Of a stretch of 47,511 nucleotides of DNA, positions 4,311 through 38,148 are shown piece by piece. Position 1 is the first letter of the stretch; each line of letters opens with the position of its first letter. This stretch comes from a virus (taxonomy: Duplodnaviria > Caudoviricetes), in IMG/VR virus record IMGVR_UViG_3300016667_000679, positions 1-47,511 of that record. One strand, written 5' to 3'. The position numbers were made by a program, and so were the translations under genes. The notes below the pieces were generated by a model. That model had not been told where the DNA came from, did not search any database, and saw nothing but the letters and a program-made list of their open reading frames with translations.

Positions 4311-4784
4311 TTACAGAATGTCGTATCCTTGATTGTCGAGGGAATAAACAACGTTCTTAATGTCAAACGTAGCGATCGCCTTGGTGCAACCCTCACAGGG
4401 CTTAGAGAGTCCCTGTACAAACTCCCGACGATCCGTTCCAATATACTTCATGCGACAGATATACAAAGTGGACTTAGCCAGCTGTTCCTGATCAATGAAC
4501 CGAAGCGCATTCTTGATGGCATCGGTTTCCGCATGAAGGAAGATGCTCTGATGGTTACGCTGAAACTTAACCTGAAACGGATGGGTCTTCTTCTGGTTGA
4601 TACCAAACGAGATCATATCGTTCTTATAAACGACAGCTGCTGCGATGCGAGCACTGGCTACAGGCTCAACAGTCACAGCAAGCTTGCTCAAAATGTCTAG
4701 TATCTTGAGATTCTTATCCCTCTTGCCCGCCATAGACGGTCGCAAGAGGGTAGTCGGTCGGGGCAATTCAATAATGTTACTCAT
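4311..4784 (-). CDS. cytidine/deoxycytidylate deaminase-family zinc protein
   Basis: HAE and KPCEGC zinc-binding motifs. Confidence 0.8.
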   Translation of the reverse strand: MSNIIELPRPTTLLRPSMAGKRDKNLKILDILSKLAVTVEPVASARIAAAVVYKNDMISFGINQKKTHPFQVKFQRNHQSIFLHAETDAIKNALRFIDQEQLAKSTLYICRMKYIGTDRREFVQGLSKPCEGCTKAIATFDIKNVVYSLDNQGYDIL

Positions 4785-4989
4785 GTTCGTTCTCATAATT
4801 ATCCATCAAGTCAATCAGGTCGCTCATCTTTTCATGAATACGAAGGAAAGCCCTTTTTTCGTGGGCAGACATGCGATCCACAAAATCCGGAAAACTTACA
4901 CCATCTTCCATCGCTTCCTCGACAATCGAGATAAGCTGGTCAATATCCTTTGAGGTGTTTTCAAACGCACAGTAAGACATGTTAGCCAT
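4777..4989 (-). CDS. hypothetical phage protein
   Basis: MANMSYCAFENT start; coupled to neighbours. Confidence 0.7.
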   Translation of the reverse strand: MANMSYCAFENTSKDIDQLISIVEEAMEDGVSFPDFVDRMSAHEKRAFLRIHEKMSDLIDLMDNYENEHE

Positions 4990-11080: not shown

Positions 11081-11354
11081 TGATGTAATTGTCCAGTTTC
11101 TTGATGAAGGCTTGAATTTTATCGGTTCGGTTTGGCCAATAGAGATAATGTTTATCTGGGTTAGCCATCAGATTGTTTAGCAACGGCATAATCATTGCTC
11201 TCATACCCTGTAGCTTATTGGCGATCTCCTCTTTTGATTTAACAACTTCCTGATGCTTCTGTTGCACTTCCTGAAGCATTTTGTTTTCATACTCTTTGAT
11301 TTCTTCTTCGGATACAAGAGAGAAACCAAAATCATCGTCTTCGTTTAGTTTCAT
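11073..11354 (-). CDS. hypothetical phage protein
   Basis: MKLNEDDDFGF...YWPNR; ATGA overlap with the polymerase stop. Confidence 0.75.
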   Translation of the reverse strand: MKLNEDDDFGFSLVSEEEIKEYENKMLQEVQQKHQEVVKSKEEIANKLQGMRAMIMPLLNNLMANPDKHYLYWPNRTDKIQAFIKKLDNYIND

Positions 11355-12455
11355 GAGAACCAGTCCTCCAATGTTGCAATCTTTTCTGCCTTCCAACCAA
11401 TACAATCAACGATAGATGTGATAGGATCAAGGAAAGTTTTTTCAAATTGTTTTCCTTTGTCGATGTACTCGTCCAACCCAAACTCAGAAGGCAGCGCACC
11501 AGCTGTTGCGATAACAGAAGTGTTTAGTGGGTTTGGTTCTTTCAAATAAGCAAACTTGATCTTGTCACCTTCGCCGATTGGCTGAACCTTTGTCATCTTC
11601 TTCTTTTTAACATAATGATTGAAGATCAGCGCACCACGAACATGGATCGGTGTTCCCGACTTACAAATCTGATTATCGTCTTGATATTTCTTAAGACCCT
11701 TTACGCCACGAGGGAAAGCCACGTCTTCAAAAGGAAGAGTCATAAACTCATTGCGGAAATCTTCAACGAAACTCTGTAGAGATTCTTCATTTTCATTCAT
11801 GATAATCTCAAGAGCTTCCTTAATCTTACCACGACAGACGCCAGGAGTGGAAGAACGAACAGCCTCGATGCCCATCATCTTGAGCTTTGGCTTCTCATAT
11901 TGTACACCCTCATTGTTCCACACGTTGAGGATATACATCTTCTTGGCTTTCCAGATCCCCTTGTTGGCGATAGCTTCCCGCTTCATGATCATCTTCTGAG
12001 CATAAGCGTTCATCATATCTGCTAGCTCTTGGAAAGATTTATCAATAAAAGGTTGGATCTTTGCCTCGATGAATTTATCAAGAGCCTCAACAATCTTCTT
12101 CTCGTCTTTCAGACCAACGGAACTGACGATGCCACTCATATTAACATATATCGAATCTGTGTCAGAAGCAATAACATAATCAACATTCTTGGTCTTCAGC
12201 ATCTTATTCATGTACTCGTTCATCTTCCGTTCGATCCAACGAATAGAAAGCTGACCAGACATGGTGATCGCCTCGGCGTGCTTGATGTCATACCAACGGA
12301 AGTATTGGTTGCTAACCCAGCGCACCGTAGGCACTGTTCAATTGAATCTTTTTCGCCATCTGTAGATTGTGATAGCGAGAAATATCATTGACAGTTTGCC
12401 TACGGAACGCTGCAATCTCCTCATTAGTTAGAGTTGACAGTTCCACTTGTTCCAC
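11351..12455 (-). CDS. 43: DNA polymerase family B, C-terminal subunit (gp43B), frame broken at 12311-12314
   Basis: GTG at 12455 opens ...QMAKKIQLNSAYGALG then TAG; NQYFRWYD, ASDTDS and KMMGIEAVRSSTP continue in the +1 frame to 11351. Confidence 0.9.
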
Positions 12456-12457
12456 TT

Positions 12458-13150
12458 TTAATTTACCTTTCTACACATCCAACCTTTAGATCTTCCTTTT
12501 GTTGAAGGTTTGCCAGTTTTAGATGTGTTCCATAATGTTGTGTATGCAAGATTGCGTAATTGACAAAATTCTTCAAGTCTATTTGTTTTATAGATATTTC
12601 CTTCTGGACAAACAACTTCAAAGTAAGAAGACAATGAATCTCTTATTTTTTCTTTATTGTTCGCCCAATTATTTTTAGCCCATTCTTTCATAAACTCAGA
12701 ATGTTTTGGCTTTTTTCTTCCTGTGTTTTTTTCAACAGCTTTTTTTAAATTTTCGCGACTTATGTCATCATAATAATGTTTCTTTTCTGGGTCGTTTCTA
12801 GTCACCTTGACAGCTTCTGACACTTTTTTTCTAGCTTGTTCAGATCTTCTCATTGGATTATTATTTCCAGAATTATCTATGTGCGAAAATCCACCAACAC
12901 CACCAAGAGTCATATTATAGCTGGTTTCAGAGATAATTACAAGCTCTTTTTCTAGATTATACATTTCTGATTCTGATTCGCAGAATTTTAATATTTCTTT
13001 GGTGAAATTTTCTTTACCATATTTTTTTATGGATTTTTTTAAAGCTACACCAGAACCAAAATATCCATCTTTCAGATTTTCAGTTTTATGTGCACCAATA
13101 TAAAATTTACCATTTTGATTGTTTGTTATTTTATAAACATAATAGAACAT
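12458..13150 (-). CDS. GIY-YIG homing endonuclease (Seg-like)
   Basis: YVYKITN..KFYIG..YFGSG..YN motif; AT-rich; own late promoter. Confidence 0.9.
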   Translation of the reverse strand: MFYYVYKITNNQNGKFYIGAHKTENLKDGYFGSGVALKKSIKKYGKENFTKEILKFCESESEMYNLEKELVIISETSYNMTLGGVGGFSHIDNSGNNNPMRRSEQARKKVSEAVKVTRNDPEKKHYYDDISRENLKKAVEKNTGRKKPKHSEFMKEWAKNNWANNKEKIRDSLSSYFEVVCPEGNIYKTNRLEEFCQLRNLAYTTLWNTSKTGKPSTKGRSKGWMCRKVN

Positions 13151-13176
13151 TTGTTTCTCCATTACAGTTCTATTTG

Positions 13177-13184
13177 TATTTATA
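13177..13184 (-). promoter_or_regulatory. T4-type late promoter of the homing endonuclease
   Basis: exact TATAAATA just upstream of the gene. Confidence 0.8.
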
Positions 13185-13197
13185 AAATACTAGTTTC

Positions 13198-14649
13198 CTA
13201 GGTAGAAAGTAATCCACGTTTTTTCATTTCAGCATCTATCAATTCAAGTCGCTTCTTAGCTTCGATCATCTTCTTTTTGTAAACAGTTCGATCATTGTAC
13301 ATACGTTCCATGATCTCGGCTAGGAAACTCTGGTTTTCCTTTCGATAAAAACATCCATTCGCAGCATAAGAAGCATTCAGATCAGGCTCAAAGTTACCTT
13401 CAAGAAGCTCGTCGATACTTGGAATATATCCCTGTCCCGCCCATGTATCAGGACCAATGTTGTACTGCATGATAAGATGAGGATACAGAGAGTTCAAGTC
13501 GAAAGAAACAACCCACTCGCTGAGACCAATCTTTGGTTCCTTCACATATGCACCAACAAGATCAGAGCCATGCGCTTCTTGGAAAGGAGACACAACAATG
13601 TTACGATCAAGAAGGAAGTTATGAATGATAACATCCCACTGACGAACGGAAGCTAGAGTATCATCATAGTTTACCTTGGCGTCATAAGCCAGAGCCAAAA
13701 CCTGTTCGATGAATCCTAGCTTCTGCTCCAACTTCTCGATCAGTTCAACGTCGCGGATGTTATACTCGATGTACTTCTGAAAGTCTCGGTTGTACATATC
13801 CTGAAGACCATCATATTCAGAGTAATCCATCTTACGTTCGCCAAGTTCAATGTTGGCAATGTGGTCTAGGCGATATGATTCCTGAGCAGTATAGGTGAAC
13901 TTGCGATACAATGCAAAATAGTCAAGAGCCGAGATGCCAATCAGATCATAAGACATCTGCTTCTTGCCACGCATCTCAACTTCATATTCATTAAGAATAC
14001 CCCAAGGCGAAAGCTTCTTAGCTTCGTCCTCTCCAAGAAGAAGTTTGATTCGATTGACAAGATACGGAATGTCGAAGAACTCGATATTCCACCCAGTGAG
14101 AATGTCTGGCGACCATTCGTTCCAGATTGTCAGAAACGAGCGTGCCAGGGCAAACTCATCTTTACACTTGAAGTATCTTACTGATTCTTTGTGTTCCTTG
14201 TAATCACCACACCCGAAAACAACCTTCTCACCGTTGCGGGCGATAGTGATTGCGGTGATCGGATTTCTAGCAGTAGTGATGTCAGGAAAGCCTTGATCGA
14301 CAGCCACCTCGATGTCGAGGGAGACGATTGAGATATCCGAGACATTATATTTGATTTCTCCCCGAAAGTTGTCATAGATGTACGTGTAAACAAATTTGTC
14401 CAGACCATAAACCGTGAAACCTTCGACATCTTTGTATTGCTTGATGAACTCTCGGGCTTCGCTCATTGAATCAAAATCAAGCTTTGACACAGGAGCGCCA
14501 TGGATGTTCTTGTACTTTGTTTCCTTGCCTCGTGCAGGAACAAACATGTATGGTTTGTATTCAACAGTCTGCTTGAATGGCTTACCTTCGTTGTAGCCAC
14601 GAACAAGAAGTTTGTTTCTGTACTGGTAAACGTTTGTGTAAAATCGCAT
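13198..14649 (-). CDS. 43: DNA polymerase family B, N-terminal subunit (gp43A: exonuclease and part of palm/fingers)
   Basis: SLDIEV, GWNIEFFDIPY, YNIRDV, SFDLNSLYPH; ends within the fingers domain. Confidence 0.95.
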   Translation of the reverse strand: MRFYTNVYQYRNKLLVRGYNEGKPFKQTVEYKPYMFVPARGKETKYKNIHGAPVSKLDFDSMSEAREFIKQYKDVEGFTVYGLDKFVYTYIYDNFRGEIKYNVSDISIVSLDIEVAVDQGFPDITTARNPITAITIARNGEKVVFGCGDYKEHKESVRYFKCKDEFALARSFLTIWNEWSPDILTGWNIEFFDIPYLVNRIKLLLGEDEAKKLSPWGILNEYEVEMRGKKQMSYDLIGISALDYFALYRKFTYTAQESYRLDHIANIELGERKMDYSEYDGLQDMYNRDFQKYIEYNIRDVELIEKLEQKLGFIEQVLALAYDAKVNYDDTLASVRQWDVIIHNFLLDRNIVVSPFQEAHGSDLVGAYVKEPKIGLSEWVVSFDLNSLYPHLIMQYNIGPDTWAGQGYIPSIDELLEGNFEPDLNASYAANGCFYRKENQSFLAEIMERMYNDRTVYKKKMIEAKKRLELIDAEMKKRGLLST

Positions 14650-15906: not shown

Positions 15907-15994
15907 GTATACCTCCAAAAGCAAGGTTAGAATTCAGTCTGACCCAAAAAGCGATCAGACCATATTATATAGGTGCTACGCAATATTTGTAAAG
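15907..15994 (-). promoter_or_regulatory. RpoH-like promoter, leader hairpin and second ROSE-like element
   Basis: CTTTAC-15-CCTATAT; GTCTGA/TCAGAC hairpin; ACCUUGCUuuuGGAGGU over the RBS. Confidence 0.5.
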
Positions 15995-16431
15995 GGGTAA
16001 GTGTAAAAATTTATCACGATTCCTGCATGACGAAACATATGCTTGGTTTCTGATGTATGAAACTTTTCGTGATATGCATCGTTGTCAATAAAAGGTGAGA
16101 CTACCCGAGCGATTCCTTTTTGCACGATTGACTTGGCGCATTCATTACAAGGAAAATGTGTGGTATAAAGGGTGCAGCCTCGAACAGAGCCATCATAGTT
16201 ATCAAGAGCATTTCGTTCAGCATGAGACACCAGCTTAATCTTCACATCTCTGTTGAGATAATCTTCTTCGAGATCAGGGACTCCACGAGGGAATCCGTTG
16301 TAACCCATACTCAGCACCCGTCGATCTTCTGTTACAATAACAGAGCCAACCTTTGTCGAGGGATCCTTCGACCAAGTGGCAACATGCTGAGCAAGTTCAA
16401 TAAACCGCTGATCCCACTTTTTGTTTAGCAT
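15976..16431 (-). CDS. cd: dCMP deaminase
   Basis: SKDPSTKVG, GYNGFPRG, HAERNA, PCNEC. Confidence 0.93.
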   Translation of the reverse strand: MLNKKWDQRFIELAQHVATWSKDPSTKVGSVIVTEDRRVLSMGYNGFPRGVPDLEEDYLNRDVKIKLVSHAERNALDNYDGSVRGCTLYTTHFPCNECAKSIVQKGIARVVSPFIDNDAYHEKFHTSETKHMFRHAGIVINFYTYPFTNIA

Positions 16432-16963: not shown

Positions 16964-16965
16964 GG

Positions 16966-17106
16966 TCACTTACTCACATAATAATTTCGATTGTTCTTGA
17001 GTTGAACAACTACTGTTTTCCAGTAGCGTTTAGCCCATCTAGTTTTAGCATTCTTTTTTGCTGTGTTTGCCAGATGGAGTCTTTCAAGATAAACCATTTC
17101 ACTCAT
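16966..17106 (-). CDS. small basic hypothetical protein (46 aa)
   Basis: open frame exactly filling the gap between flanking genes. Confidence 0.45.
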   Translation of the reverse strand: MSEMVYLERLHLANTAKKNAKTRWAKRYWKTVVVQLKNNRNYYVSK

Positions 17107-17114
17107 AACAAAAA

Positions 17115-18125
17115 TTAATCTCCAACAATCGGTATCAAGTTGTCAAGAAAGATATCTTTACATCTTTCCCACGTATACTCTAGACTTGTATTATACACTA
17201 TTTTTCTATCCAAGTCAATACATTTTTTTACAGCTTCAGTCAAGTCTTCATTCATCGAGCCGTTAATACCTTCTTTGACTACAGACTTCGGACCAGTAAC
17301 AGGATAAGTAGCAATGGGAGTGCCAGAAGCGATACTTTCAATAAGGACAACACCAAAAGTATCATTAAGAGAGGGAAAAACAAACACATCAGCGTCACGA
17401 TAAAATTGCCCAAGTTCTTTCCCCGTCTTAGCTCCAACGAATTCTACGTTGGGATACTTTCTTTCTAGTTCTTTTCTAACAGGACCATCTCCAACAACAA
17501 TCAAATGTGTTTCGTTAAATTTAAAATCAAGAGGATTTAATTTACAAAACTCTTCAATGTTTTTTTCATGAGAAACTCTGCCGACATAAAGCAACGTCAG
17601 CCCATCTCTTTTACGATTTGATGGTTTGAAGACAGATCTGTTGACTCCTCTGGTCCAAACAACCATGTTTTTGAAACCACGAGCTTCTAGTTCTTCTTTC
17701 ATACAGTTTGTTGTAACAAGAACACGAGAGGAAGCAGAATGAAACCATTTAAGATATGTATATCCAAAACCAAGAGGAAAGATTGGAACACGAGCCTTGA
17801 TGAACTCTGCAAACTTGGTGTGAAAGGAAGTTGTAAATTTTATCTTATTACGAATGCAATACATTCTTGCAGCTAGACCGAGCGGTCCTTCTGTTGCAAT
17901 ATGAATATGTTGCGGATTATAAAACTTCAACAGCTTTCTTATCTGACGAAACTCATAACATATCTGTATTTCGTTATAACCAGGCAATGAGAAAGATTTG
18001 AACATCGAAGGCTCGATTATGAAGACTTCGTACTCATCTCTCTCAAGCTGTTCTTTGAGGTTTACTAATGTGGTTACCACACCATTTATTTGTGGTAACC
18101 ACGCATCTGTTACAATACAAATCAT
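17115..18125 (-). CDS. GT4 glycosyltransferase, Agt-like diacylglycerol glycosyltransferase
   Basis: IVTDAWLPQINGVVTTL, HIATEGPLG, YVGRVSHEKN, DVFVFPS.DTFGVVLIE; coupled by TAATG to the plcP-like gene. Confidence 0.85.
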   Translation of the reverse strand: MICIVTDAWLPQINGVVTTLVNLKEQLERDEYEVFIIEPSMFKSFSLPGYNEIQICYEFRQIRKLLKFYNPQHIHIATEGPLGLAARMYCIRNKIKFTTSFHTKFAEFIKARVPIFPLGFGYTYLKWFHSASSRVLVTTNCMKEELEARGFKNMVVWTRGVNRSVFKPSNRKRDGLTLLYVGRVSHEKNIEEFCKLNPLDFKFNETHLIVVGDGPVRKELERKYPNVEFVGAKTGKELGQFYRDADVFVFPSLNDTFGVVLIESIASGTPIATYPVTGPKSVVKEGINGSMNEDLTEAVKKCIDLDRKIVYNTSLEYTWERCKDIFLDNLIPIVGD

Positions 18126-18901
18126 TAGTATTCCTTAATCACTTTCATCGAACCGTCTTTTTGATACTCGAGTAGCTGCCAAATACCATCATGGGTTTCA
18201 ACAAGAGCAGTCTTACTTTCTACCCAGTCGCCGTCGTTCATATAAATTGTATTTTCAATCAGTTTAATCTCGGCAGTATGAATGTGTCCACAAATGATAC
18301 CATCATAGTTGTTTTTATTACAATATTCAGAAATCAAATCTTCGAAACGATTGATGTATGCCAGAGCTTGTTTAGTTTTCTTTTTAAGAAATGCAGAGAT
18401 GCTCCAATATTCCATGCCAAGAGCAACTCGAACGATGTTTAGTTTCGTGTTAAGGACAACCAACATATCATAAAGAATATCCCCTATACTCATCCAAAAT
18501 TTATTTTCATGGCGCATCATTGAATCAAACATATCGCCATGAACCACAAGGAACTGTCTACCATGTATATCCCAATATGTGTGGCGGTTCATTATATCAA
18601 TGTTACCAAGAGCAATATCATATCTGAGAAATGGGCGAAGAGCCTCATCATGATTACCCACAACATAATGTACTTTGGTTTCTCTTTTGGCTGCTGTTAA
18701 AATTCTACGAATCACGTTTGAGTGGCTCTGGTTCCAGTAGTACTTACGCTTGAGTCTCCAACCGTCTATGATATCGCCGATCAGATAAAGGTTTTCTGCT
18801 GTGTTGTGTTTTAAAAAGTTACAGAGTTCATCAGCCTTGCATCCTCTTGAACCTAGATGAACGTCGCTGATGAAAATGGATCTGTATTTGGGGGAATCCA
18901 T
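18125..18901 (-). CDS. PlcP/LpxH2-like metallophosphoesterase (phospholipase C)
   Basis: FISDVHLGSRGCKA, LIGDIIDGW, GNHDE, HGDMFD, CGHIH, NDGDWVES. Confidence 0.85.
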   Translation of the reverse strand: MDSPKYRSIFISDVHLGSRGCKADELCNFLKHNTAENLYLIGDIIDGWRLKRKYYWNQSHSNVIRRILTAAKRETKVHYVVGNHDEALRPFLRYDIALGNIDIMNRHTYWDIHGRQFLVVHGDMFDSMMRHENKFWMSIGDILYDMLVVLNTKLNIVRVALGMEYWSISAFLKKKTKQALAYINRFEDLISEYCNKNNYDGIICGHIHTAEIKLIENTIYMNDGDWVESKTALVETHDGIWQLLEYQKDGSMKVIKEY

Positions 18902-18931
18902 ACTTGCTTCTCTCTTTAATTGGAGATGCAA

Positions 18932-19246
18932 TTATTTATCAACAAGTTTCATATAATCTCTCAGTAGAGAATCATATCTGTCTTTTAATTGACGATGTTC
19001 TTCTTTCATGTCTTCATATTCGGTTTCTAGATCGTGATATTCGTCTTCTAGGTCGCTGTATTCATAATCTTTTTGATTACAATCGTCACAGTATCTTTTA
19101 TATTCATCTTCCATTTCATCAATATACATGTCAATCTGGCGTTCTAGTTCCCAGTAAAGAGAATTCACATCAAACTTATCAGCCTTCCTGACACCATCAT
19201 TAATCATCTTAAGATCATTAAGGACATCTTTCCAAGATTCGCTCAT
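18932..19246 (-). CDS. acidic coiled-coil hypothetical protein
   Basis: GGAGG RBS; heptad-rich. Confidence 0.65.
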   Translation of the reverse strand: MSESWKDVLNDLKMINDGVRKADKFDVNSLYWELERQIDMYIDEMEDEYKRYCDDCNQKDYEYSDLEDEYHDLETEYEDMKEEHRQLKDRYDSLLRDYMKLVDK

Positions 19247-19476
19247 TCTATTACCTCCCAAGCCCAATGAATAACACACCAATCTTCAATACATTCATTG
19301 AAAGAATATACGGTATCAACCGTTTCTTTACCAAACTTTCGGCACATTTGTTCGTACCACCAAGGATAATAGTTTTCGCGAATCCAGTCTTCGCTGACGG
19401 TCATAACGACTCCAGCCGTGCTACCGTCGAAAATCTCATCAGACTCGACTGGTTCATGATAAGAAAAATATCGCAT
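19243..19476 (-). CDS. hypothetical phage protein
   Basis: coupled ORF; CIEDWCVIHWAWE. Confidence 0.7.
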   Translation of the reverse strand: MRYFSYHEPVESDEIFDGSTAGVVMTVSEDWIRENYYPWWYEQMCRKFGKETVDTVYSFNECIEDWCVIHWAWEVIE

Positions 19477-19694
19477 TATTTCAAGTCTTTTGTTTGTACA
19501 TGATCTTGTATGAGAATTATTGAAGCTCTAATTGGATCTCTAAATCCATTAACACAAGGGGGAACTTTGCCCCCTGCTGCTTCAAATCCCATAAACCAAT
19601 ATTGCAGTCTTCTTAAATCTTGTCTAACTGCTTCAACATAAATTTTTGTAGGAAGAGACTCTTCTTGATCCTCATCATCAGTAATATCTTCCAT
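19476..19694 (-). CDS. hypothetical protein
   Basis: start moved to MEDITDD; coupled stop/start at 19476. Confidence 0.55.
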   Translation of the reverse strand: MEDITDDEDQEESLPTKIYVEAVRQDLRRLQYWFMGFEAAGGKVPPCVNGFRDPIRASIILIQDHVQTKDLK

Positions 19695-23229: not shown

Positions 23230-23764
23230 GTTCCTCTCCATAGTTCTTTAACCATTCATATGCTCGGTCTGCTTGTTTTTTCCAAGACTCAGCTAGTGCT
23301 GCAAATTGTTCCTCTGTATATTTGTGCTGTGTAATAAACGTTTCTCTTGTTTCTGCACCAACTTCATAGTTTTCAAGATAGTCGAGGGCTTTTTCGATGG
23401 TTCTGCCACCAATAAAAGAACGACTGATGTAACCAGCTTCGTGTTTACCGAGTCCTTCTATCGTATCAATCCCAAGATATCCTTCAGCCCTACACTTACC
23501 ACATGATGCTGGAACACAGGTACAGTCTCCGCAGTGTTGTTCATCGCTTCTAAGGCACTTCTCGGCGTATGACAGCATTCTATCTACGTGCGCTTCCATA
23601 TCTGTCTCTAAAGTTTCGATTGAATATCGACCGACATTTGTGTAAGCATCATATAGACGACCAAAAAGAAAATTGTTCTCTATCTTAAGACGCATCATCT
23701 GTCGATCACGGTCGTCAATTTCAACCCTTGTCTTAAGAGGGTTGGGATTCCAGATTATATCCAT
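23216..23764 (-). CDS. hypothetical protein with Cys cluster
   Basis: HCGDCTCVPASCGKC. Confidence 0.7.
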   Translation of the reverse strand: MDIIWNPNPLKTRVEIDDRDRQMMRLKIENNFLFGRLYDAYTNVGRYSIETLETDMEAHVDRMLSYAEKCLRSDEQHCGDCTCVPASCGKCRAEGYLGIDTIEGLGKHEAGYISRSFIGGRTIEKALDYLENYEVGAETRETFITQHKYTEEQFAALAESWKKQADRAYEWLKNYGEEHGFR

Positions 23765-24302
23765 AGGTGTTTCCGTTTGTCATATAGTTTGACTTCTTCT
23801 CAGCGATCTTCTGTAGAAGCTCGGTCATTTCAATTGGTCGGTAGTCGATCTGCTCCACACATACACAGAAATAGCCAGGATGATCGATGTAATTAGCATG
23901 TGTATGCCCGTGGACGTTAGTATTAAATCTACTAGTGATGCTGTCCACATGAAGAGGAATATGTGAAAGAATAAACTTTTCGAGAACACGTACGCCATAG
24001 ATTTCACCAAAATATTTCATGTAAGTTTTTGTCTTGGCTGTATCATGGTTACCACGAATCAACCGCTTATTACCATTTAGGCGGTCTAGAATAGGAAGGT
24101 TTTTATGGTTAATGGTCACATCACCAAGATGATACACCTTGTCGTCAGGACGAACGACTTCGTTCCAACGACGAACCATCTCCTCGTTCATTTCCTCAGC
24201 AGAAGAAAAGGGGCGCAGCAGTGTGCCGTCGCCCCTCTTAAACACAGTGCAAGTTTTCTCATGTCCGAAGTGTGTATCGGAAATGAAGAATACGTTAGGC
24301 AT
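23733..24302 (-). CDS. calcineurin-like metallophosphoesterase
   Basis: SDTHFGH, YHLGD, GNHD, SHIP, HGHTH. Confidence 0.9.
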   Translation of the reverse strand: MPNVFFISDTHFGHEKTCTVFKRGDGTLLRPFSSAEEMNEEMVRRWNEVVRPDDKVYHLGDVTINHKNLPILDRLNGNKRLIRGNHDTAKTKTYMKYFGEIYGVRVLEKFILSHIPLHVDSITSRFNTNVHGHTHANYIDHPGYFCVCVEQIDYRPIEMTELLQKIAEKKSNYMTNGNTYGYNLESQPS

Positions 24303-24303
24303 A

Positions 24304-25158
24304 CTACTTTCCCACATTAATAAAGGGAATTGAACCATTACCAGCCATCGTGGTAGGTAGAGAGCCATTCCATTTCTGAAGAGCGGTGTACTGAACTAGT
24401 TCGCTGGTTAGTGATTGGGCAAGGATTCGATTTGCCTCAGCCTGAGCCTGTGCTTCCAGACGAATAGACTCAGCATTACCACGAGCCTCTTCGATCTTCT
24501 TCTGTGCTTCTGCTCGGGCGGTAGCTACCTCGTTTTCACGCTGCTGCGAGATCTGAGTAGCTGCTTGCTTGGCATTTAGAGCAGCGACGACTGTCTCGGG
24601 TAGACGAAGTGAACCGATCCAGTAGATCTTCTCGATAACGATACCGATAGAAGCTACCTGTTCTGAAACGTCCTTCTGAACCGCATCAATGATGTCAGCC
24701 TTACCAGCGCCATATACGCTATCAATTGGCTTGGTGCTTGCGACTCGAACTAGACTATCGCGAACCATGTTTCGCAGATAGATGTTTGTGATCTCATCAA
24801 TACCCTTGCGATACTTCTGAAACACCAGAGGAACCTTGTCTGGGTCAATATGATACGAGATACCAACATCGGCGTTGACATTCATACCCTCGACGGTACC
24901 AAAACTAATTGATTCATCATTAGGTGATGAACGAGAAGCTTCTGCATCCCAAGTGTAGTTCTGAGTGAAGGTAGGAAACACGTAAAGCTCTTCGTTCATA
25001 CCAATCCAGTAACGACCTGGACCTAGAACCTCCTGAGATACACCCTTGGTATCACCGAGTAGGTTAACTTTCACACCCACATTACCCGCTTCAACTCGCG
25101 AACATGCAGCGAGAGAGAAAGCGAGAAGCGAAATCATACCGATATTCTTAACGTTCAT
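24304..25158 (-). CDS. SPFH/band-7 domain lipoprotein
   Basis: lipobox LAAC, VEAGNVGVKV, AEA-rich coiled coil, KWNGSLP. Confidence 0.9.
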   Translation of the reverse strand: MNVKNIGMISLLAFSLAACSRVEAGNVGVKVNLLGDTKGVSQEVLGPGRYWIGMNEELYVFPTFTQNYTWDAEASRSSPNDESISFGTVEGMNVNADVGISYHIDPDKVPLVFQKYRKGIDEITNIYLRNMVRDSLVRVASTKPIDSVYGAGKADIIDAVQKDVSEQVASIGIVIEKIYWIGSLRLPETVVAALNAKQAATQISQQRENEVATARAEAQKKIEEARGNAESIRLEAQAQAEANRILAQSLTSELVQYTALQKWNGSLPTTMAGNGSIPFINVGK

Positions 25159-27987: not shown

Positions 27988-28674
27988 TTAAGCAGCCATC
28001 CGCACGAAACCAGTCGTGTCTTTCTTAGCACGACCCTTAGCCTTCAGACCAACGACCACACCACGACCGTCGAGGAAGCGGAGGTCGGTCTCGTCGCCAT
28101 TGACGACAGGAGCGCCCATGTACTCGCTCGGAAGCTCCTTGCGGAACACAACGGCAACATTAAGACCAAACGCAAGAGCCTTCTCGGCGTTGACATCGTT
28201 GTCCTCGGCGAGCGAGAACGTCAGGTGATAGTTGGCAGGGAGATCCTTGCGGTTGGCTCGCTTGGTGTAGTCGTAAAACTGCACGTCAGGGAACATCGCC
28301 ATGATGTTGGGATACTCGCCGACGGGCACTCGCTCCCAAGGAATATCGCTGGTCCCATTAAGACGGATAACAGGAATCATGTTAGCCTTCTCCGCCTTGC
28401 GGATCAGGGCAGCGATCTCCTTGGCGATCAGGAGCATAAACTTCTCCCGCTCTTCGAAGTACATCTTGGTCTTGGCGATACGAGCCGCCTGAACGTTACC
28501 GAAAGCACCACGCCCAGCCGTGTAGAGGCAAGCCTTGGTGCAACCAGCCGAACGCATGGCGCAGACCTCGTACCCAGACAGATCGGCGGGAGCGAGGTAC
28601 AGGATACCAGTCATATACCCCAGCTTCTCACCCTTGACGGTCTTGGCGTTCGTGTCGATACCGAGCAGCTTCAT
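27988..28674 (-). CDS. Gp88-like (radical-SAM-related) phage protein
   Basis: C..S.GC...CL...GRG, RLNGTSD, FYDYTK, GDETDLRFLD, VGLKAKG. Confidence 0.7.
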   Translation of the reverse strand: MKLLGIDTNAKTVKGEKLGYMTGILYLAPADLSGYEVCAMRSAGCTKACLYTAGRGAFGNVQAARIAKTKMYFEEREKFMLLIAKEIAALIRKAEKANMIPVIRLNGTSDIPWERVPVGEYPNIMAMFPDVQFYDYTKRANRKDLPANYHLTFSLAEDNDVNAEKALAFGLNVAVVFRKELPSEYMGAPVVNGDETDLRFLDGRGVVVGLKAKGRAKKDTTGFVRMAA

Positions 28675-28701
28675 CACATTCCCTTTCATCATCATATCAC
28701 T

Positions 28702-31005: not shown

Positions 31006-31563
31006 TTAGAAGCTACGAGTCAGCGACACGCCGACAGCCTCGGTCTCGGTGGTGCCAGTGGTGTAGTAGTACCCCAGACCAACGCCGACTTCCTTGGTGA
31101 CATCAGCAGCTAGACCAACGTTGTAGCGGTTTTCGCGAAGCTGATCAGAGGAAGCGCCAAGGCGGTAACGATAACCAACCGAAGCTGATACTGGACCATA
31201 GACTCGACGGCTGACTTCAACCCCAGCACCCCAGACATTGAAGTTGTCGCCTTCGGTAAGAACTCGACCAGCTTCAACATACACAACAGGCTTGAACCCA
31301 TAAACTGTTGGGAGAGCAGGACCAACCTTACCAGTGAAAGCAGTAGCAAGATCGCCTTCATTAGAAAGCTGATTAGCCTCTAGCTCAACACCAAGGTTAA
31401 GAGCGTTAGCTACGGTGTCGTTGTACTGAAGAGCATACTCGGTAGAATCAGGACCATCGTTGCGGCTGTTACCAAATCGAGCTTCACCAGTCACTTCTCC
31501 AGCCATTGCTGCTGATGAGAAAACTGTTAGAGCCGCTGCCATAGCTAGAACAAAATTACGCAT
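31006..31563 (-). CDS. outer-membrane beta-barrel protein
   Basis: signal peptide ending AMA, alternating hydrophobic strands, C-terminal Phe. Confidence 0.8.
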   Translation of the reverse strand: MRNFVLAMAAALTVFSSAAMAGEVTGEARFGNSRNDGPDSTEYALQYNDTVANALNLGVELEANQLSNEGDLATAFTGKVGPALPTVYGFKPVVYVEAGRVLTEGDNFNVWGAGVEVSRRVYGPVSASVGYRYRLGASSDQLRENRYNVGLAADVTKEVGVGLGYYYTTGTTETEAVGVSLTRSF

Positions 31564-31631: not shown

Positions 31632-32597
31632 TTAGGGAACCACCCCAAGATCAGTTAGATCCTTCTTAACAATCAGGAATGGTAGAGGGTAGTAACCATC
31701 CTTGACTGTATCATCTTGCCCATCACGGGAAAGGATGAACTTGATAAACTCTTGCTGCAGAGGAGGTAGTGAATCAGAGGGAGACTTGTTAAGATAGACA
31801 TACATGAAGCGAGTGATTGGATATTCGCCGCTATATGCCTTTTCCTGAGTTGGAGCCACACACTTACCATCGCGACCAGAAATTTGCACAACTTTTACAT
31901 CAGCTGTCTTATAACCAATCCCAGAGTAGCCGATAGCAAACTTGTCAGCACCAACACCCTGAACAACGGCAGATGACCCTGGCTGTTCCTTCACGTTATC
32001 CTTATAGTCACCACCTGCCAGAGCAGCTTCCTTGAAGTAGCCATAAGTGCCAGAGGCAGAGTTACGACCAAACAGGGAGATAGGTTGGTTCTTGAACTGC
32101 CCTGTAAGACCAAGGTCGCCCCATGTAGCAATGTTAGAGGTGCCTGTGTTACGAGTCTTAGAGAAGATGCCGTCTAGTTCAGCAAGACTGATACAAGTTA
32201 CAGGATTGTCTTTGTGAACATAAACAGCCAGCGTATCAACTGCTACTCGAAATGCGCTTGGCTTGTAACCATACTTCTGCTCAAACGAATCTACCTCAGC
32301 ACCCTTCATTGGGCGGGACATAGGACCGAACTGCGCAGTTCCAGCGATAAGAGCAGGAGGAGCGGTAGAAGAACCCTTGCCTTCGATTTCAATTTGAACC
32401 GAAGGATACTGCTTGCGGAAGTCTTCAGCCCAAAGAGTCATAAGATTGTTTAGGCTGTCAGAACCCATAGACTTCAGGGTTCCAGATACACCAGACACAG
32501 GTTTGTATGGCTGGTATTGCTTATCTAGCTCGGCAGCATTCGCGGAGAAACTGAAAACGATTGCTGTTGTTGCTAGAAGTGTTTTAATAAAATTCAT
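31632..32597 (-). CDS. pstS: phosphate ABC transporter substrate-binding protein PstS
   Basis: signal peptide, GSDSL, GKGSST, MSR, GRNSASGTY, IGYSGIGY, YPITR. Confidence 0.93.
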   Translation of the reverse strand: MNFIKTLLATTAIVFSFSANAAELDKQYQPYKPVSGVSGTLKSMGSDSLNNLMTLWAEDFRKQYPSVQIEIEGKGSSTAPPALIAGTAQFGPMSRPMKGAEVDSFEQKYGYKPSAFRVAVDTLAVYVHKDNPVTCISLAELDGIFSKTRNTGTSNIATWGDLGLTGQFKNQPISLFGRNSASGTYGYFKEAALAGGDYKDNVKEQPGSSAVVQGVGADKFAIGYSGIGYKTADVKVVQISGRDGKCVAPTQEKAYSGEYPITRFMYVYLNKSPSDSLPPLQQEFIKFILSRDGQDDTVKDGYYPLPFLIVKKDLTDLGVVP

Positions 32598-32621: not shown

Positions 32622-32704
32622 TGGTAGGGACGGTCGGACTCGAACCGACAAGCCGAAGCGGCAGATTTTGAGTCTGCTGAGTTTACCAATTTCTCCACGC
32701 CCCC
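32622..32704 (-). tRNA. tRNA-Leu(CAA)
   Basis: cloverleaf, GCAGA-CT-CAA-AA-TCTGC, long variable arm, encoded CCA. Confidence 0.93.
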
Positions 32705-32712
32705 ATTAACTC

Positions 32713-33255
32713 TTACGAATATGGAATATACATCGATTCCTTCAAATAGTCAAGAACTTTTTCTGGAGAAGTTTCACCGTATGGGTCGTCGGTTGCATTA
32801 TCACGACGACCTGGCTCTTCGAAAAACTTCTCGATCCTGCCGTTGTTAACAACCATAGCGTAACGCCAAGAGCGCATACCGAAACCAAGGTTGTCCTTAT
32901 CAACTAGCATGCCCATTAGACGAGTGAATGTACCAGAACCATCAGGAATCATCTTAAGATTCTTAAGACCCTGATCTTGAGCCCACTTGTTCATCACGAA
33001 TGCATCATTGACCGAGATGCAATAAACTTCATCAACACCAAGCGACTTGATTTCATCATAAGCTGCTTCAAATCCTGGAACCTGATATGTCGAACAGGTT
33101 GGAGTGAAAGCGCCAGGAAGAGAGAAAACAACAACTCGCTTTCCAGCAAAATAATCCTTGGTTGTTACATCCTGCCAGCGATAAGGGTTTGGTCCGCCGA
33201 CTGACTCGTCACGAACACGAGTCTTGAATGTGATCATAGGAACGCTGTCAATCAT
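32713..33255 (-). CDS. peroxiredoxin (Prx5-like)
   Basis: LPGAFTPTCS, SVNDAFVM, GMRSWRY. Confidence 0.93.
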   Translation of the reverse strand: MIDSVPMITFKTRVRDESVGGPNPYRWQDVTTKDYFAGKRVVVFSLPGAFTPTCSTYQVPGFEAAYDEIKSLGVDEVYCISVNDAFVMNKWAQDQGLKNLKMIPDGSGTFTRLMGMLVDKDNLGFGMRSWRYAMVVNNGRIEKFFEEPGRRDNATDDPYGETSPEKVLDYLKESMYIPYS

Positions 33256-33262
33256 AATATCC

Positions 33263-33430
33263 TCACTTATTGATAAGATCTTTTAGATCCTTGCGAAGTT
33301 CGGCTCCCTCAAAGTTTTGCATCGAGAGGTAGTGAACGAGTCGATCGTTGCTGGGATCATGTTTATATAGTTCGCGAGCAAAGTCACGAATCATAGCATA
33401 GTCCATATCAGTCTTAATATGCTTACCCAT
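33263..33430 (-). CDS. small hypothetical protein (55 aa)
   Basis: MGKHIKTDMD...; GGAG RBS. Confidence 0.6.
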   Translation of the reverse strand: MGKHIKTDMDYAMIRDFARELYKHDPSNDRLVHYLSMQNFEGAELRKDLKDLINK

Positions 33431-33452
33431 CACATTACTCCATCATTAAAAT

Positions 33453-33528
33453 TGGCGGCAGCACTGGATTCGAACCAGACCCGAATAGAAGTATGGACCC
33501 TCTACACCTGCCCATGCAGCATTCTGCC
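33453..33528 (-). tRNA. atypical tRNA-like element (possible anticodon CCA)
   Basis: canonical T arm CTGG-TTCGAAT-CCAG and 3' CCA; shrunken D loop, acceptor mismatch, loop GTCCATA. Confidence 0.5.
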
Positions 33529-33534
33529 GAAATT

Positions 33535-33627
33535 TGGTAGTCCCAGCAGGACTCGAACCTGCACCTCGCGGTAATCTGCCGCTTAACCGTGTATAAGACG
33601 GACGCTCTGCCATTGAGCTATGGGACC
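33535..33627 (-). tRNA. tRNA-Ile(UAU) with long variable arm
   Basis: CCGT-CT-TAT-AC-ACGG; extra GCGG/CCGC arm; CCA. Confidence 0.8.
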
Positions 33628-33633
33628 GTAACT

Positions 33634-33709
33634 TGGTGGGTCTTACGGGAATCGAACCCGTGTTATCGCCGTGAAAGGGCGGTGTCCTAGACCTCTAGAC
33701 GAAAGACCC
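33634..33709 (-). tRNA. tRNA-Glu(UUC)
   Basis: cloverleaf, CT-TTC-AC loop, CCA. Confidence 0.93.
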
Positions 33710-33710
33710 T

Positions 33711-33787
33711 TGGTGGTTCCGACAGGACTCGAACCTGTAACCAATCCGTTATGAGCGGATAGCTCTGACCAATTGAGCTACAGAACC
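33711..33787 (-). tRNA. tRNA-CAU (elongator Met or Ile2)
   Basis: ATCCG-CT-CAT-AA-CGGAT, CCA. Confidence 0.9.
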
Positions 33788-34263
33788 GAAATTTCATGAT
33801 CCCAAGGATTATACACAACAGCAATTCTGTTACCCATAAAAGGTTCTACTGCATGCATCAATCCTGGACCAAAGATAATCAATCTGTCTGTTTTTGGCGA
33901 TATTGATTCAGTTTCAGTTATAAATCTACCGCCAATCATATTACTAACTTCAGGATAATAAATTATCGTACAAATTGGGGTAACAAGTTTACCAGTTTCT
34001 ATTAATCGAGTTTCATCTTTATCTATATGCCACCCTTGAGGAGAACTATCAACTGCTCCCCATCTTTCATAACCAACCATATTTGAAAGATCAAAAAATC
34101 TTTGCGTAAAATTGATTAGTTCTGGCATCAAAAGATCAGTGGGGTCTAAGATATCTTTATTAAGATATTTACTCTTAAGAGTTTCTGGTTGCTTTCGATA
34201 ATATTCAGCTAACAATGAAGCAGTAGAATTACCGAAGGCATTATCCTCAATAATTATTCTCAT
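33778..34263 (-). CDS. 2OG-Fe(II) oxygenase-like protein
   Basis: WHID, GGRF, HAV and terminal R motif. Confidence 0.75.
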   Translation of the reverse strand: MRIIIEDNAFGNSTASLLAEYYRKQPETLKSKYLNKDILDPTDLLMPELINFTQRFFDLSNMVGYERWGAVDSSPQGWHIDKDETRLIETGKLVTPICTIIYYPEVSNMIGGRFITETESISPKTDRLIIFGPGLMHAVEPFMGNRIAVVYNPWDHEISVL

Positions 34264-34267
34264 AAGA

Positions 34268-34555
34268 TTACTTTTTGAATGTCAAAAGAAACTCGGCTTT
34301 ATCTTTTACCCATTGATCGAACGGTAGATGCATACCAGTCGAACCATCCCAATCTTTGAAAGCTTTATCATAAAAACCAATCTTATGATTTTGCTTTTGG
34401 AGTTCGGTCAGTTCGTCAGCCCATCGCTGCCATGTACCATCATCAACCACAGAATCATCAAGAACATAGTAAAGATAAGAATGAACTAGCATTTGAGAAC
34501 GTCGCTGTCTAATCTTTTCATTCAGCGTTTGAACTTCCATAAACTGTTCGAGCAT
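34268..34555 (-). CDS. stand-alone protein resembling the N-terminal (Ia) domain of NAD-dependent DNA ligase
   Basis: HSYLYYVLDDSVVDD..W resembles the ligase YY..D.P..D..YD motif. Confidence 0.65.
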   Translation of the reverse strand: MLEQFMEVQTLNEKIRQRRSQMLVHSYLYYVLDDSVVDDGTWQRWADELTELQKQNHKIGFYDKAFKDWDGSTGMHLPFDQWVKDKAEFLLTFKK

Positions 34556-34587
34556 CTTATCCTCGCCGCTCAATCAATCATGTACAC

Positions 34588-34616
34588 AGTATATATCATA
34601 TTTTCAAAGATGTCAA
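34588..34616 (-). promoter_or_regulatory. sigma70-type promoter
   Basis: TTGACA-17-TATACT. Confidence 0.8.
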
Positions 34617-34625
34617 GCAAAAAAT

Positions 34626-34788
34626 ACCAGTTACCACCATCTGGTTCCACTATTTCGCTGTGGAGGATTTTAGTAGGAAAGGCGAGTACGAGTCCGCGAT
34701 TTCGAGTCCACGGCGACTCATGCTCCTCATAACACCGTACTCAAGCTATGAGGCGGTGACTAGGTTCCTATCTCCTAGCCACGGACGT
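34626..34788 (-). ncRNA. unannotated structured RNA, copy 1
   Basis: diverged repeat of 37395-37558 with compensatory changes in several stems. Confidence 0.8.
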
Positions 34789-34792
34789 GATT

Positions 34793-34868
<76 letters not shown>

Positions 34869-34874
34869 ATTAAA

Positions 34875-35060
34875 TTAAAAGTCGTCTTCAATAATGCCAA
34901 TCTGACCATTAAAATGAAAACCAGCACCACGAAGCCACTCTTCTACAACATTAAAAACATCATCAAGATTAATTGTTTCTTTAGAGAGAGTTTTTTCTGT
35001 AGAGTAAGACTCTCGGCTGTTTTCGAAGTCCTGAGAATGATAAAGGCGAATCGTATCCAT
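34875..35060 (-). CDS. hypothetical protein
   Basis: GGAG RBS; WLRGAGFHFNG. Confidence 0.65.
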   Translation of the reverse strand: MDTIRLYHSQDFENSRESYSTEKTLSKETINLDDVFNVVEEWLRGAGFHFNGQIGIIEDDF

Positions 35061-35084
35061 AATTTTCTCCATAATTAAAACGAT

Positions 35085-35159
35085 TGGTAGACCGAGAGGG
35101 AATCGAACCCCCAACCTTGACCGTGTAAAGGTCCTGCTCTACCGTTGAGCCATCGGTCT
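35085..35159 (-). tRNA. tRNA-Val(UAC)
   Basis: GACC-TT-TAC-AC-GGTC, CCA. Confidence 0.9.
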
Positions 35160-35166
35160 ATTGGGT

Positions 35167-35243
35167 TGGTAGCGGGAGTGGGAATTGCACACCACGACCT
35201 TTAGTTTATGAGACTAACGAGCTGACTTCTGCTCCATCCCGCT
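35167..35243 (-). tRNA. atypical tRNA-Met(CAU)
   Basis: TTAGT-CT-CAT-AA-ACTAA; acceptor AGCGGGA; non-canonical T loop; CCA. Confidence 0.75.
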
Positions 35244-35250
35244 ATTGAAT

Positions 35251-35327
35251 TGGTCTCGGCGGCAAGACTCGAACTTGCGACCCTCTGCTCCCAAAGCAGA
35301 TGCGCTACCAGGCTGCGCTACGCCGAG
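35251..35327 (-). tRNA. tRNA-Pro(UGG)
   Basis: cloverleaf, TT-TGG-GA loop, CCA. Confidence 0.94.
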
Positions 35328-35332
35328 AAAAT

Positions 35333-35406
35333 TGGAGCTTCGTGTGAGAATCGAACTCACGACCTCTGGTTGGAAGCCAGATACGTTACCTCTACGCCAA
35401 CGAAGC
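35333..35406 (-). tRNA. tRNA-Gly(UCC)
   Basis: cloverleaf, CT-TCC-AA loop, TCCA end. Confidence 0.93.
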
Positions 35407-35412
35407 AATAAC

Positions 35413-35946
35413 TTATTTAGTTACTCGACCTTTATACCAACCTTCTGGTATAAGATCATTTTTTCTTAATTTTTTATTATCAATTCCATTTGTAATCCAG
35501 AAAGAACCATACTGAGAATTACCAGATCCTTGTTGGTGAAGAGAATTCTTTTCTCCTATCTTTCTCTTAGCTTCCTCAGTATGCTTTTTTCCTTTCCAAC
35601 AATCAGGAACTTTCATAATTCCTTCTGCATGAAGTCGTTTGTTTCTAATCTTAGTAGCTTCTCTATTATAAGCTAATTGTCCAGGATTGTCAACTCCATA
35701 TTTCTCTTGCAGAATTTTATTTGTCTTTTTTCTTCCGAGTTTATGCAGTTCTTGCATAACTTCCGCTTTAGAAATAAGACCAGTCAAACCTTGCCAAGCA
35801 ATTCTATCTTGTTCAAACCCATATTTTTCATACAGGTCTCTATGAGCCGCTGCATGTTGCTCAATAGTTAATTCTTTGATATTTGATGGATCATCAGATC
35901 CACCCATATGTCTAGGAATTATATGATGTTTATGCAGCAAACTCAC
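35413..35946 (-). CDS. HNH homing endonuclease with NUMOD-like repeats
   Basis: [19 protein letters not shown]...H; [12 protein letters not shown]; WITNG. Confidence 0.88.
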
Positions 35947-35963
35947 AATATTACTCTAAAAAT

Positions 35964-36029
35964 GCACCTTTGTATCTATTCCTTAGAGGAAACGCTCACC
36001 ATACGGTGTCAGTTCGATTAACAAAGGCG
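35964..36029 (-). ncRNA. small three-way-junction RNA candidate
   Basis: GCCUUUGU/ACAAAGGU closing stem with CACC/GGUG and UUCC/GGAA hairpins. Confidence 0.35.
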
Positions 36030-36053
36030 ACTTAACATCAATTAACTTCAATC

Positions 36054-36082
36054 AGTATATATGATTCACATCATGAAGTCAA
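36054..36082 (-). promoter_or_regulatory. sigma70-type promoter
   Basis: TTGACT-17-TATACT. Confidence 0.75.
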
Positions 36083-36291
36083 GCACTATTTTCATCTTCT
36101 TTCAAAGTTTCTTTAGCGGCTCTTACAAGAGCATCATATAAAAACTCAGAGAAAAGTTTCTTTTGTAGTTCTTTATTATTTCTTACAAGAGCAACAACAA
36201 GCTCTTCCATCTCGGCTGGATCAGAATCAAAAATTATTGTCGCTGTTCCATCTTCGTTTTCAATAATTTCTTCAACGATAAGAGATTTCAT
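36079..36291 (-). CDS. hypothetical protein
   Basis: ENEDGTAT motif. Confidence 0.65.
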   Translation of the reverse strand: MKSLIVEEIIENEDGTATIIFDSDPAEMEELVVALVRNNKELQKKLFSEFLYDALVRAAKETLKEDENSA

Positions 36292-36309
36292 AATAAGAAC
36301 CCTTTAAAA

Positions 36310-36385
<76 letters not shown>

Positions 36386-36390
36386 ATTAA

Positions 36391-36480
36391 TGGCGGAGAG
36401 GGTGGGATTCGAACCCACGGAGGCTTTCATTCCTCGCTAGTTTTCAAGACTAGTTCCTTAAACCGCTCGGACACCTCTCC
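36391..36480 (-). tRNA. tRNA-Ser(UGA)
   Basis: CTAGT-CT-TGA-AA-ACTAG, long variable arm, GCCA. Confidence 0.94.
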
Positions 36481-36644
36481 TATTATTTTCATTCTCTGGA
36501 TATTTATCTCGGTATATACGCGAAGTTTCAAGACAAAGAGACATTACTGCTGCAGCGTTAATTTTAGCAGCAAACAGAACCAGCCGCTTGGCTATTACTG
36601 CAGTAAAATAATCAAATTTAGTCATAACAAACTTCCTTTAAAAT

Positions 36645-36805
36645 TGCTGGGCTACCGTCATACGTTTAAAAGCTCTTTGAACTTCCCTTAGAGTCATCTT
36701 TCAAGCTATTGCGTAGCTTATCCCAGCTAGCTGGTGATGATCATCCTCGGGTGGTGTTCTCCCTCGACGGTCAGGGTCTTGCTATCTTTCGCTCGCAGCC
36801 CAACA
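36645..36805 (-). ncRNA. candidate structured non-coding RNA
   Basis: terminal stem UGUUGGGCUGC/GUAGCCCAGCA; internal UCAUC/GAUGA, CCAGC/GCUGG, AAGCUA/UAGCUU; no ORF. Confidence 0.6.
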
Positions 36806-36809
36806 CTAT

Positions 36810-37202: not shown

Positions 37203-37381
37203 TTGTAGATCCCCACAAACATGAGAAAAAGATAAACAAACATCACTATTATAACGTCAACAATCCTAAATTCAATATCTGGATGTTTATTTTTTATACT
37301 ATCATACCAAAAAAACAAAAAAACAGACCCATAAATCATTACGATTGGATCTATAATAAACGGATTTGTAAATGTTTTCAT
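37199..37381 (-). CDS. small membrane protein
   Basis: two hydrophobic segments; ATGA overlap. Confidence 0.55.
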   Translation of the reverse strand: MKTFTNPFIIDPIVMIYGSVFLFFWYDSIKNKHPDIEFRIVDVIIVMFVYLFLMFVGIYK

Positions 37382-37394
37382 TTTTTCACCGAAA

Positions 37395-38051: not shown

Positions 38052-38065
38052 TTTTTCCTCGAAAA

Positions 38066-38141
<76 letters not shown>

Positions 38142-38148
38142 TGAAAGG

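Follow-up and report, generated by a model that had tools for sequence, protein, structure and literature searches.

The closest described counterparts of the locus analyzed here are bacterial PlcP-Agt operons. They include the ‘type 2’ layout of Sebastian et al. 2016 (PMC4796936), the P. aeruginosa pair PA3219-PA3218 (PMC8528852), the SAR11 HTCC7211 glycosyltransferase GTcp (PMC8231724) and the Methylosinus PlcP-Agt pair (PMC9239053), all as described in the available portions of these papers. We compared with them a gene pair in a stretch of 47,511 nucleotides (hereafter the window), an IMG/VR virus record that is 28% complete. The pair shares with these systems its two families, its gene order and its overlapping or adjacent genes; it keeps the catalytic and substrate-binding residues, and its identities are in the range of proven orthologues. 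Unlike the bacterial operons, it sits in a lytic T4-like phage, has AT-rich codons, has no Pho box that we could find, and is present or absent within the population.

Among phages, pstS is known in cyanophages and pelagiphages as a phosphate-stress auxiliary gene. In both cases T4-like phages of aquatic habitats carry a gene of the host's phosphate-starvation response, and the window has a pstS as well. The difference is that phage pstS-type genes import outside phosphate, whereas the cassette described here would draw on the host’s own membrane. The main texts of the open, searchable literature yielded no report of a viral PlcP-Agt pathway; the initial annotation likewise knew of no characterized case in a phage. 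The available parts of PMC11360552 and PMC12282109 do not mention viral plcP. Three other papers, PMC10653327, PMC9611531 and PMC13384950, class viral ‘lpxH’ with the lipopolysaccharide genes; the genes so labeled there may not be of the PlcP type. With the cassette, a pathway known from bacteria recurs in viruses, where it is widespread and mislabeled; what the window itself adds is the exact presence and absence of the cassette and a lineage in which Pho control has apparently been lost.

The cassette and its phage setting

The pair occupies the following positions of the window:

18901-18125, minus strand: plcP-like ORF A, 258 aa; calcineurin-like metallophosphoesterase, predicted phospholipase C
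18125-17115, minus strand: agt-like ORF B, 336 aa; GT4, predicted diacylglycerol glucosyl/glucuronosyl transferase
18123..18127, minus strand: stop/start overlap of ORFs A and B, TAATG
16964..18942, minus strand: whole cassette, 1,979 bp; 195 other bases instead in a co-occurring variant

ORF A carries SDVHLGSRGCKA, GDIIDGW, GNHDE and NDGDWVES, and the N-terminus of ORF B is MICIVTDAWLPQINGVV; motifs and coordinates of both ORFs are exactly those first reported. Pfam matches are to Metallophos for ORF A (E = 1e-13) and to GT4 families for ORF B (E = 3e-25). The stop codon of ORF A and the start codon of ORF B have one base in common, and the same overlap is found in the relative L001. Translational coupling of the two genes is a prediction drawn from this overlap.

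On one side the pair is flanked by the T4-like core genes for gp43, UvsX and gp41, and on the other by gp44/62/45, RegA and gp46; the best isolate match of gp44 is 62% identical. The sequencing runs that hold this stretch are mostly freshwater metagenomes, with no RNA run listed among them, and contigs of other studies join the pair to the same flanks as in the window. Host contamination and a chimera were both rejected on the strength of the core T4 genes on both sides, the synteny in the relative L083 and the other-study contigs. The GC3 values of ORF A (0.385) and ORF B (0.299) fall within the span of the 30 other measured window genes (0.16-0.70) and far from those of the bacterial copies in P. 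aeruginosa (0.92) and S. meliloti (0.79), which bears out the phage-like, AT-rich codon usage noted earlier. Comparison of PlcP with L001 and L002 gave a pN of 0.04, with synonymous sites saturated; for the GT4, dN/dS was 0.07 and 0.16, as against 0.09-0.15 for neighboring core genes. These values indicate that both cassette genes are under purifying selection. In its viral flanks, viral codon usage and purifying selection, the pair resembles phage auxiliary metabolic genes.

Other genes in the window encode a peptide deformylase, a SpoU methylase, a Band-7 protein, a peroxiredoxin and Hsp20, and an endolysin gene lies 1.8 kb downstream of the pair. Two deaminase-family genes (4311-4796 and 15976-16431), two phrog_547 phosphoesterases (23733-24368 and 37545-38126) and 12 tRNA genes (within 32622-38223) are also present. 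A gp88-like gene (27988-28695) has a GC3 of 0.70, well above the remaining window, and is likely a recent arrival. The gp43 DNA polymerase gene (11351-14649), a single ORF in the close relatives L083 and L129, is split here: a GIY-YIG endonuclease insertion (12458-13162) divides it and brings new ends for both halves, a late-promoter motif lies at the insertion (13177-13184), and a stop with a frame change occurs just behind the motif-B residues near 12315. The split may stem from assembly error, recoding or decay, and no other exact match to it was found in IMG/VR.

Family assignment of the two proteins

All seven metal ligands of the metallophosphoesterases are intact in ORF A (D13, H15, D43, N83, H121, H206 and H208), the list being drawn from the available text of the LpxH paper PMC5016852. 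The identities of ORF A are 53% (pelagiphage Mosig_00120), 46% (PlcP copy of P. aeruginosa), 41% (PlcP copy of S. meliloti) and 21% (LpxH of E. coli); the two bacterial PlcP references belong to other strains, and gene layout was the basis for equating them with PA3219 and the S. meliloti PlcP orthologue. The named best matches are from Hellea, Hirschia and Robiginitomaculum (56-60%), an affinity that found no firm support in either a quick or a more careful tree. In the quick tree LpxH falls outside with a support of 100. In the careful tree, built without LpxH and with the P. aeruginosa and S. meliloti copies as references, a 97/99 clade holds these two and not the window protein, and the deeper branches give no firm placement. 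The quick tree separates ORF A from LpxH; nesting of ORF A among proven PlcPs is neither favored nor disfavored by the careful one. An AU test went against a single origin of viral plcP (p = 0.021), a result that is a hint only, the tested group having been picked after the first tree and two of its members being of unknown origin.

That ORF A is instead an LpxH of lipid A synthesis, with the pair altering lipopolysaccharide, we hold to be extremely improbable. The two proteins are alike in fold, in the seven metal ligands, in a helical insertion and in their database label (PMC5016852, available text), and the best NCBIfam and PDB matches of ORF A are to LpxH. Databases give the label to homologues of ORF A, and equally to the PlcP copies of P. 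aeruginosa and S. meliloti. The predicted structure of ORF A (pLDDT 84) retrieved LpxH and other metallophosphoesterases only, the nearest solved fold being LpxH at a TM of 0.52-0.55; this does not discriminate, because the set compared contains no PlcP structure. Against the LpxH assignment stand the low identity and the scores with the NCBIfam models PRK05340 and TIGR01854 (51/134 and 39/190 bits, score/cut-off), both far below the cut-off. ORF A moreover reads GNHD where LpxH reads GNRD, with His84 at the position of LpxH Arg80, the residue that binds the lipid X phosphate and is described as an LpxH hallmark (PMC5016852, available text). The viral ORFs recovered from the 80 related loci described below have GNHD in 78 of 78 cases and GNR in none of the 78. 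On these grounds the LpxH identity was rejected. A neighboring gene for a non-phosphorus-lipid synthase, by which PlcP is also recognized, is predicted here in ORF B. Identity, motifs, trees and gene order support the first proposal for ORF A, a metallophosphoesterase of the PlcP type, as against LpxH.

The SAR11 HTCC7211 enzyme GTcp is a guide for ORF B, since its residues have been mutated and shown to be essential, and its diacylglycerol (DAG) contacts described, in the available part of PMC8231724. When GTcp residues are placed on ORF B by motif, H102 and D255 correspond to the His104-Asp256 dyad; G15, G80, G83, R183 and K188 to Gly16/82/85, Arg190 and Lys195; and T256, F257, G258 and E263 to Thr257, Phe258, Gly259 and Glu264. 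The motifs GRVSHEKN and FPSLNDTFG stand where GTcp has GRVAXEKN and FPSXTDTFG, so that two positions differ (A to S and T to N). The DAG-contact residues His104, Arg163 and Trp320 of GTcp are matched by H102, R159 and W319, and they are kept in 43-44 of 44 viral GT4s. In 15 of the 44 viral Agt-like proteins, the dyad resembles that of Agt2 in having Glu for Asp256, a substitution that may alter the choice of sugar.

For ORF B, identity is 39% (273 bits) with the Agt1-type copy of P. aeruginosa and 40-42% with four copies from Alphaproteobacteria, as against 31% with Agt2 and 22-26%, over partial alignments, with WaaG/WaaB. The corresponding scores are 256-273 bits for Agt1-type copies, 165 bits for the Agt2 copy and less than 47 bits for WaaG/WaaB, and in the tree a 100/100 split sets ORF B, together with Agt1, apart from Agt2. 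The identities of both window proteins are in the range accepted for proven PlcP and Agt orthologues (46-47% and 41-43%; PMC8528852 and PMC9239053, available text). Among 401 Alphaproteobacteria, no bacterial homologue comes closer to ORF B than about 50%. Identity, motifs, gene order and the phylogenetic separation from Agt2 all agree with the Agt-type family originally named for ORF B, and an Agt-type GT4 is the supported assignment. The sugar is predicted to be glucose or glucuronate and the product MGDG, GADG or both.

Relatives, phosphate control and variation of the cassette

In IMG/VR, a single narrow scan with gene A found 361 relatives, and the analysis covers the best 80 of them. With a GT4 counted when it starts at most 1.5 kb downstream of plcP and a GT2 when it adjoins plcP, 43 of these 80 loci have a GT4, 24 a GT2 and none both; nine have neither despite room for one, and four are too short. 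Dereplication at 95% leaves 34 with GT4, 13 with GT2, six with neither and three too short (n = 56). A need for some glycosyltransferase partner fits DAG as the shared intermediate. In bacteria, plcP-agt is the commonest layout, and plcP pairs there with other DAG glycosyltransferases as well. The viral GT2 (238 aa; L027:10895-11611 and 23 other loci) takes the place of the GT4 beside plcP and never occurs with it; in L208 it is upstream of plcP. Directly behind plcP, 27 of the 80 loci have a conserved 57-aa ORF (L080:2460-2633 and 26 other loci) with a hydrophobic N-terminus, two cysteines and no Pfam or PHROG match, and a CHASE2 adenylate cyclase is near plcP in 8 of the 80 (for example L018:6959-8998).

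Full-length plcP was found in four of 23 longer records drawn from 80 loci of the downstream phage gene, including two of the three records in this set that are at least 90% complete; a fifth match is weak and partial. A search of 50,697 GenBank phage records gave five matches to gene A. Two of these are from cultured T4-like phages: Mosig_00120 of Pelagibacter phage Mosig EXVC030M (MT647606.1), the 53% homologue, which faces pstS and is divergent from it, and QPX48289.1 of Synechococcus phage S-SRM01, a 34% homologue. Both differ from ORF A in being annotated as UDP-2,3-diacylglucosamine hydrolase and in having no glycosyltransferase partner that sequence queries with the GT4 and GT2 could find. 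In S-SRM01, a freshwater cyanophage (L082), the divergent lone homologue lies beside psbA. According to the available text of PMC4796936, cyanobacteria largely lack plcP, as does the genome of Pelagibacter HTCC1062, the host of Mosig; a term search of the available Mosig announcement found no mention of phosphate or lipids. The pair is common in freshwater T4-like phages.

The features of the window that bear on phosphate and on transcription of the pair are:

31632..32597, minus strand: pstS, phosphate-binding protein, above the TIGR02136 cut-off; behind prx and tRNA-Leu
31006..31563, minus strand: protein next after pstS, predicted to form a small outer-membrane beta-barrel and possibly a porin
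19456..19484, minus strand: sigma70-like site (10/12), the nearest upstream of the pair
20482 (11/12), 22350 and 22793 (12/12): sigma70-like sites further upstream
17190..17218, minus strand: sigma70-like site (11/12), pointing toward the following phage gene from within the 3' end of the GT4 gene

Because the long start annotated for pstS runs into tRNA-Leu, the ATG at 32597 is the true one. The initial annotation had cited PstS as encoded in the same window; the gene is indeed there, and it lies 12.7 kb from the cassette and outside it. Named best matches of PstS are 67-69% identical overall and alphaproteobacterial (Parvibaculum, 67-68%), and the best match among the 401 Alphaproteobacteria genomes is 67%, which hints at an alphaproteobacterial host. 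The product of 31006-31563 has a signal peptide, belongs to a virus-wide family and has a homologue in L001.

Upstream of plcP, a Pho-box match of 13-14/14 was found in 21 of 76 viral loci, as against 12 of 1,520 background windows, and nearly all of the viral matches are at -40 to -65; after dereplication, 14 of 54 relatives have one. The scan reached a score of 12 in three of five bacterial controls. The window has no Pho box scoring 12/14 or more in the 4 kb that precede plcP or the 3 kb that precede pstS, and L001 has no match of at least 12 upstream of plcP. The strict consensus occurs four times in the window, against 5.9 expected, and a Pho box there was rejected on both counts. The complete 218-kb record G002 has, at L003:8950-12498, a pstS-plcP-agt-ugd run with a Pho-box-like site (12/14). 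This run is a fuller module, in which the UDP-glucose dehydrogenase-like gene could supply UDP-glucuronate; a search of the window (28% of a genome) with this ugd as query found no counterpart. Speaking against a tightly bound module, pstS was found in just six of the 39 longer records with plcP, chosen from 84 loci, and in one of the three that are at least 90% complete.

The pair stands in a run of small genes in which all seven best sigma70-like sites are on the coding strand, two of them perfect, and the window scan found no T4 late promoter motif near the pair. As consensus matches, these sites suggest that transcription of the genes in this lineage probably starts early, at phage promoters of the sigma70 type, without control by host PhoB. 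In this one lineage, Pho control appears to have been lost.

In runs X5 and X6, both from one study other than the source study of the window, a contig joins 16963 to 18943 through 195 other bases and lacks exactly both genes; in X6, this contig extends 413 and 100 bases on the two sides. In X9, from another study, there is a loose end at 16963, and runs X8, X12, X14 and X2 gave no cassette-free joint. Contigs were placed at thresholds of 85 and 90%, under the 95% advised for joints, so that the cassette-free variant is possibly a closely related phage and not of the same population. A search for more cassette-free loci by way of the downstream gene found none that reaches the slot in a near-identical phage. 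Because a co-occurring variant has 195 other bases in its place, the cassette is dispensable and replaceable. Contig depth, which is a rough guide only, was 13.5 for the cassette-free and 5.9 for the cassette-bearing form in one run, and 17.5 and 3.5-5.7 in the other; that the cassette-free variant is deeper in both samples suggests that the benefit is conditional.

Predicted function and alternative readings

From the characterized bacterial homologues (PMC4796936, PMC8528852 and PMC8231724, available text), gene A is predicted to cut the phospho-headgroup off inner-membrane lipids, leaving DAG, and gene B to add glucose or glucuronate from a UDP-sugar to give a phosphorus-free glycolipid. 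We consider it very probable that the pair converts host membrane phospholipids to phosphorus-free glycolipids in this way.

The glycosyltransferase would stop DAG from building up or being re-phosphorylated, so that the membrane would hold until lysis, and host phosphatases would free phosphate from the cut headgroups. The phosphorus released would then pass into phage nucleic acid. Assuming our own values for lipid area, protein share and cell sizes, replacement of 40% of the lipid would yield about 2.5, 8 or 20 equivalents of a 170-kb phage genome in small, medium and large cells, a contribution that is useful and not dominant. An Agt-type gene of their own is found in 149 of the 401 sampled Alphaproteobacteria (a set that includes the unpublished genome G305), which would make the cassette redundant for many possible hosts. 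We slightly favor, as the best of the readings, that what the phage gains from the lipid swap is phosphorus for its nucleic acid. The phosphorus mining put forward in the initial annotation is partly supported, by relatives with their Pho boxes and the pstS-plcP-agt-ugd run; the window falls short of it in its missing Pho box and unlinked pstS, and so do the plcP-bearing records, most of which lack pstS.

The same chemistry might serve another purpose: an altered membrane charge or protein environment could reduce the adsorption of competing phages, blunt membrane-acting defenses or stabilize the infected cell, with phosphorus release as a side effect. The unlinked pstS and missing Pho box of this lineage, the place of the pair among small genes behind strong sigma70-like sites and its exchange at a variable slot all suit such a role, and lipid remodeling affects phage adsorption and polymyxin tolerance according to the available part of a review (PMC9804370). 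However, the 14 dereplicated relatives with Pho boxes and the pstS-linked layouts of Mosig and L003 connect the family with phosphate stress, and by our own reasoning a bulk lipid change would be a slow way to block a receptor; we judge this purpose unlikely. A shift of substrates, with a different phosphodiester (lipid-linked or nucleotide) as the target of the phosphoesterase and a different envelope acceptor as that of the glycosyltransferase, appears more doubtful still and is on the whole improbable. The distance of ORF B from all sampled alphaproteobacterial homologues, the position of the window PlcP outside the clade of the two characterized-type copies and the ability of an unrelated GT2 to fill the partner slot would be compatible with it, but the DAG-contact residues are retained in the window and in nearly all viral GT4s, the identities equal those of proven orthologues, and other DAG glycosyltransferases also partner bacterial plcP, as noted above.

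Lastly, the phospholipase might mainly weaken the membrane and aid lysis, as could be read from the lone plcP of Mosig and S-SRM01 and from the endolysin gene nearby. We regard this as very improbable: the partner enzyme would rebuild a bilayer lipid, the upstream promoter sites are of the early and not the late type, and relatives carry Pho boxes. Returning to phosphorus supply as the gain, a broader version of this reading would have freshwater T4-like phages widely mining host membranes and this lineage, freed from PhoB, swapping lipids early in every infection, also where the cell itself would never do so, with the cassette tracking lake phosphorus; we offer this extension tentatively and think it rather doubtful.

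Viral plcP is hidden under the lpxH label, and surveys may count it among lipopolysaccharide genes. For the first enzyme, Mosig on Pelagibacter HTCC1062, a host without plcP, provides a cultured system. If the proposed function is true, phosphorus would be taken from the host membrane while the cell stays intact, whereas the known phage phosphate genes import it. Viruses would then contribute to the balance of phospholipids and glycolipids in phosphorus-poor waters, and viral copies would be included wherever counts or transcripts of plcP serve to indicate phosphorus stress in bacteria. If such mining is widespread, part of the glycolipid pool that marks bacterial phosphorus stress would be virus-made.
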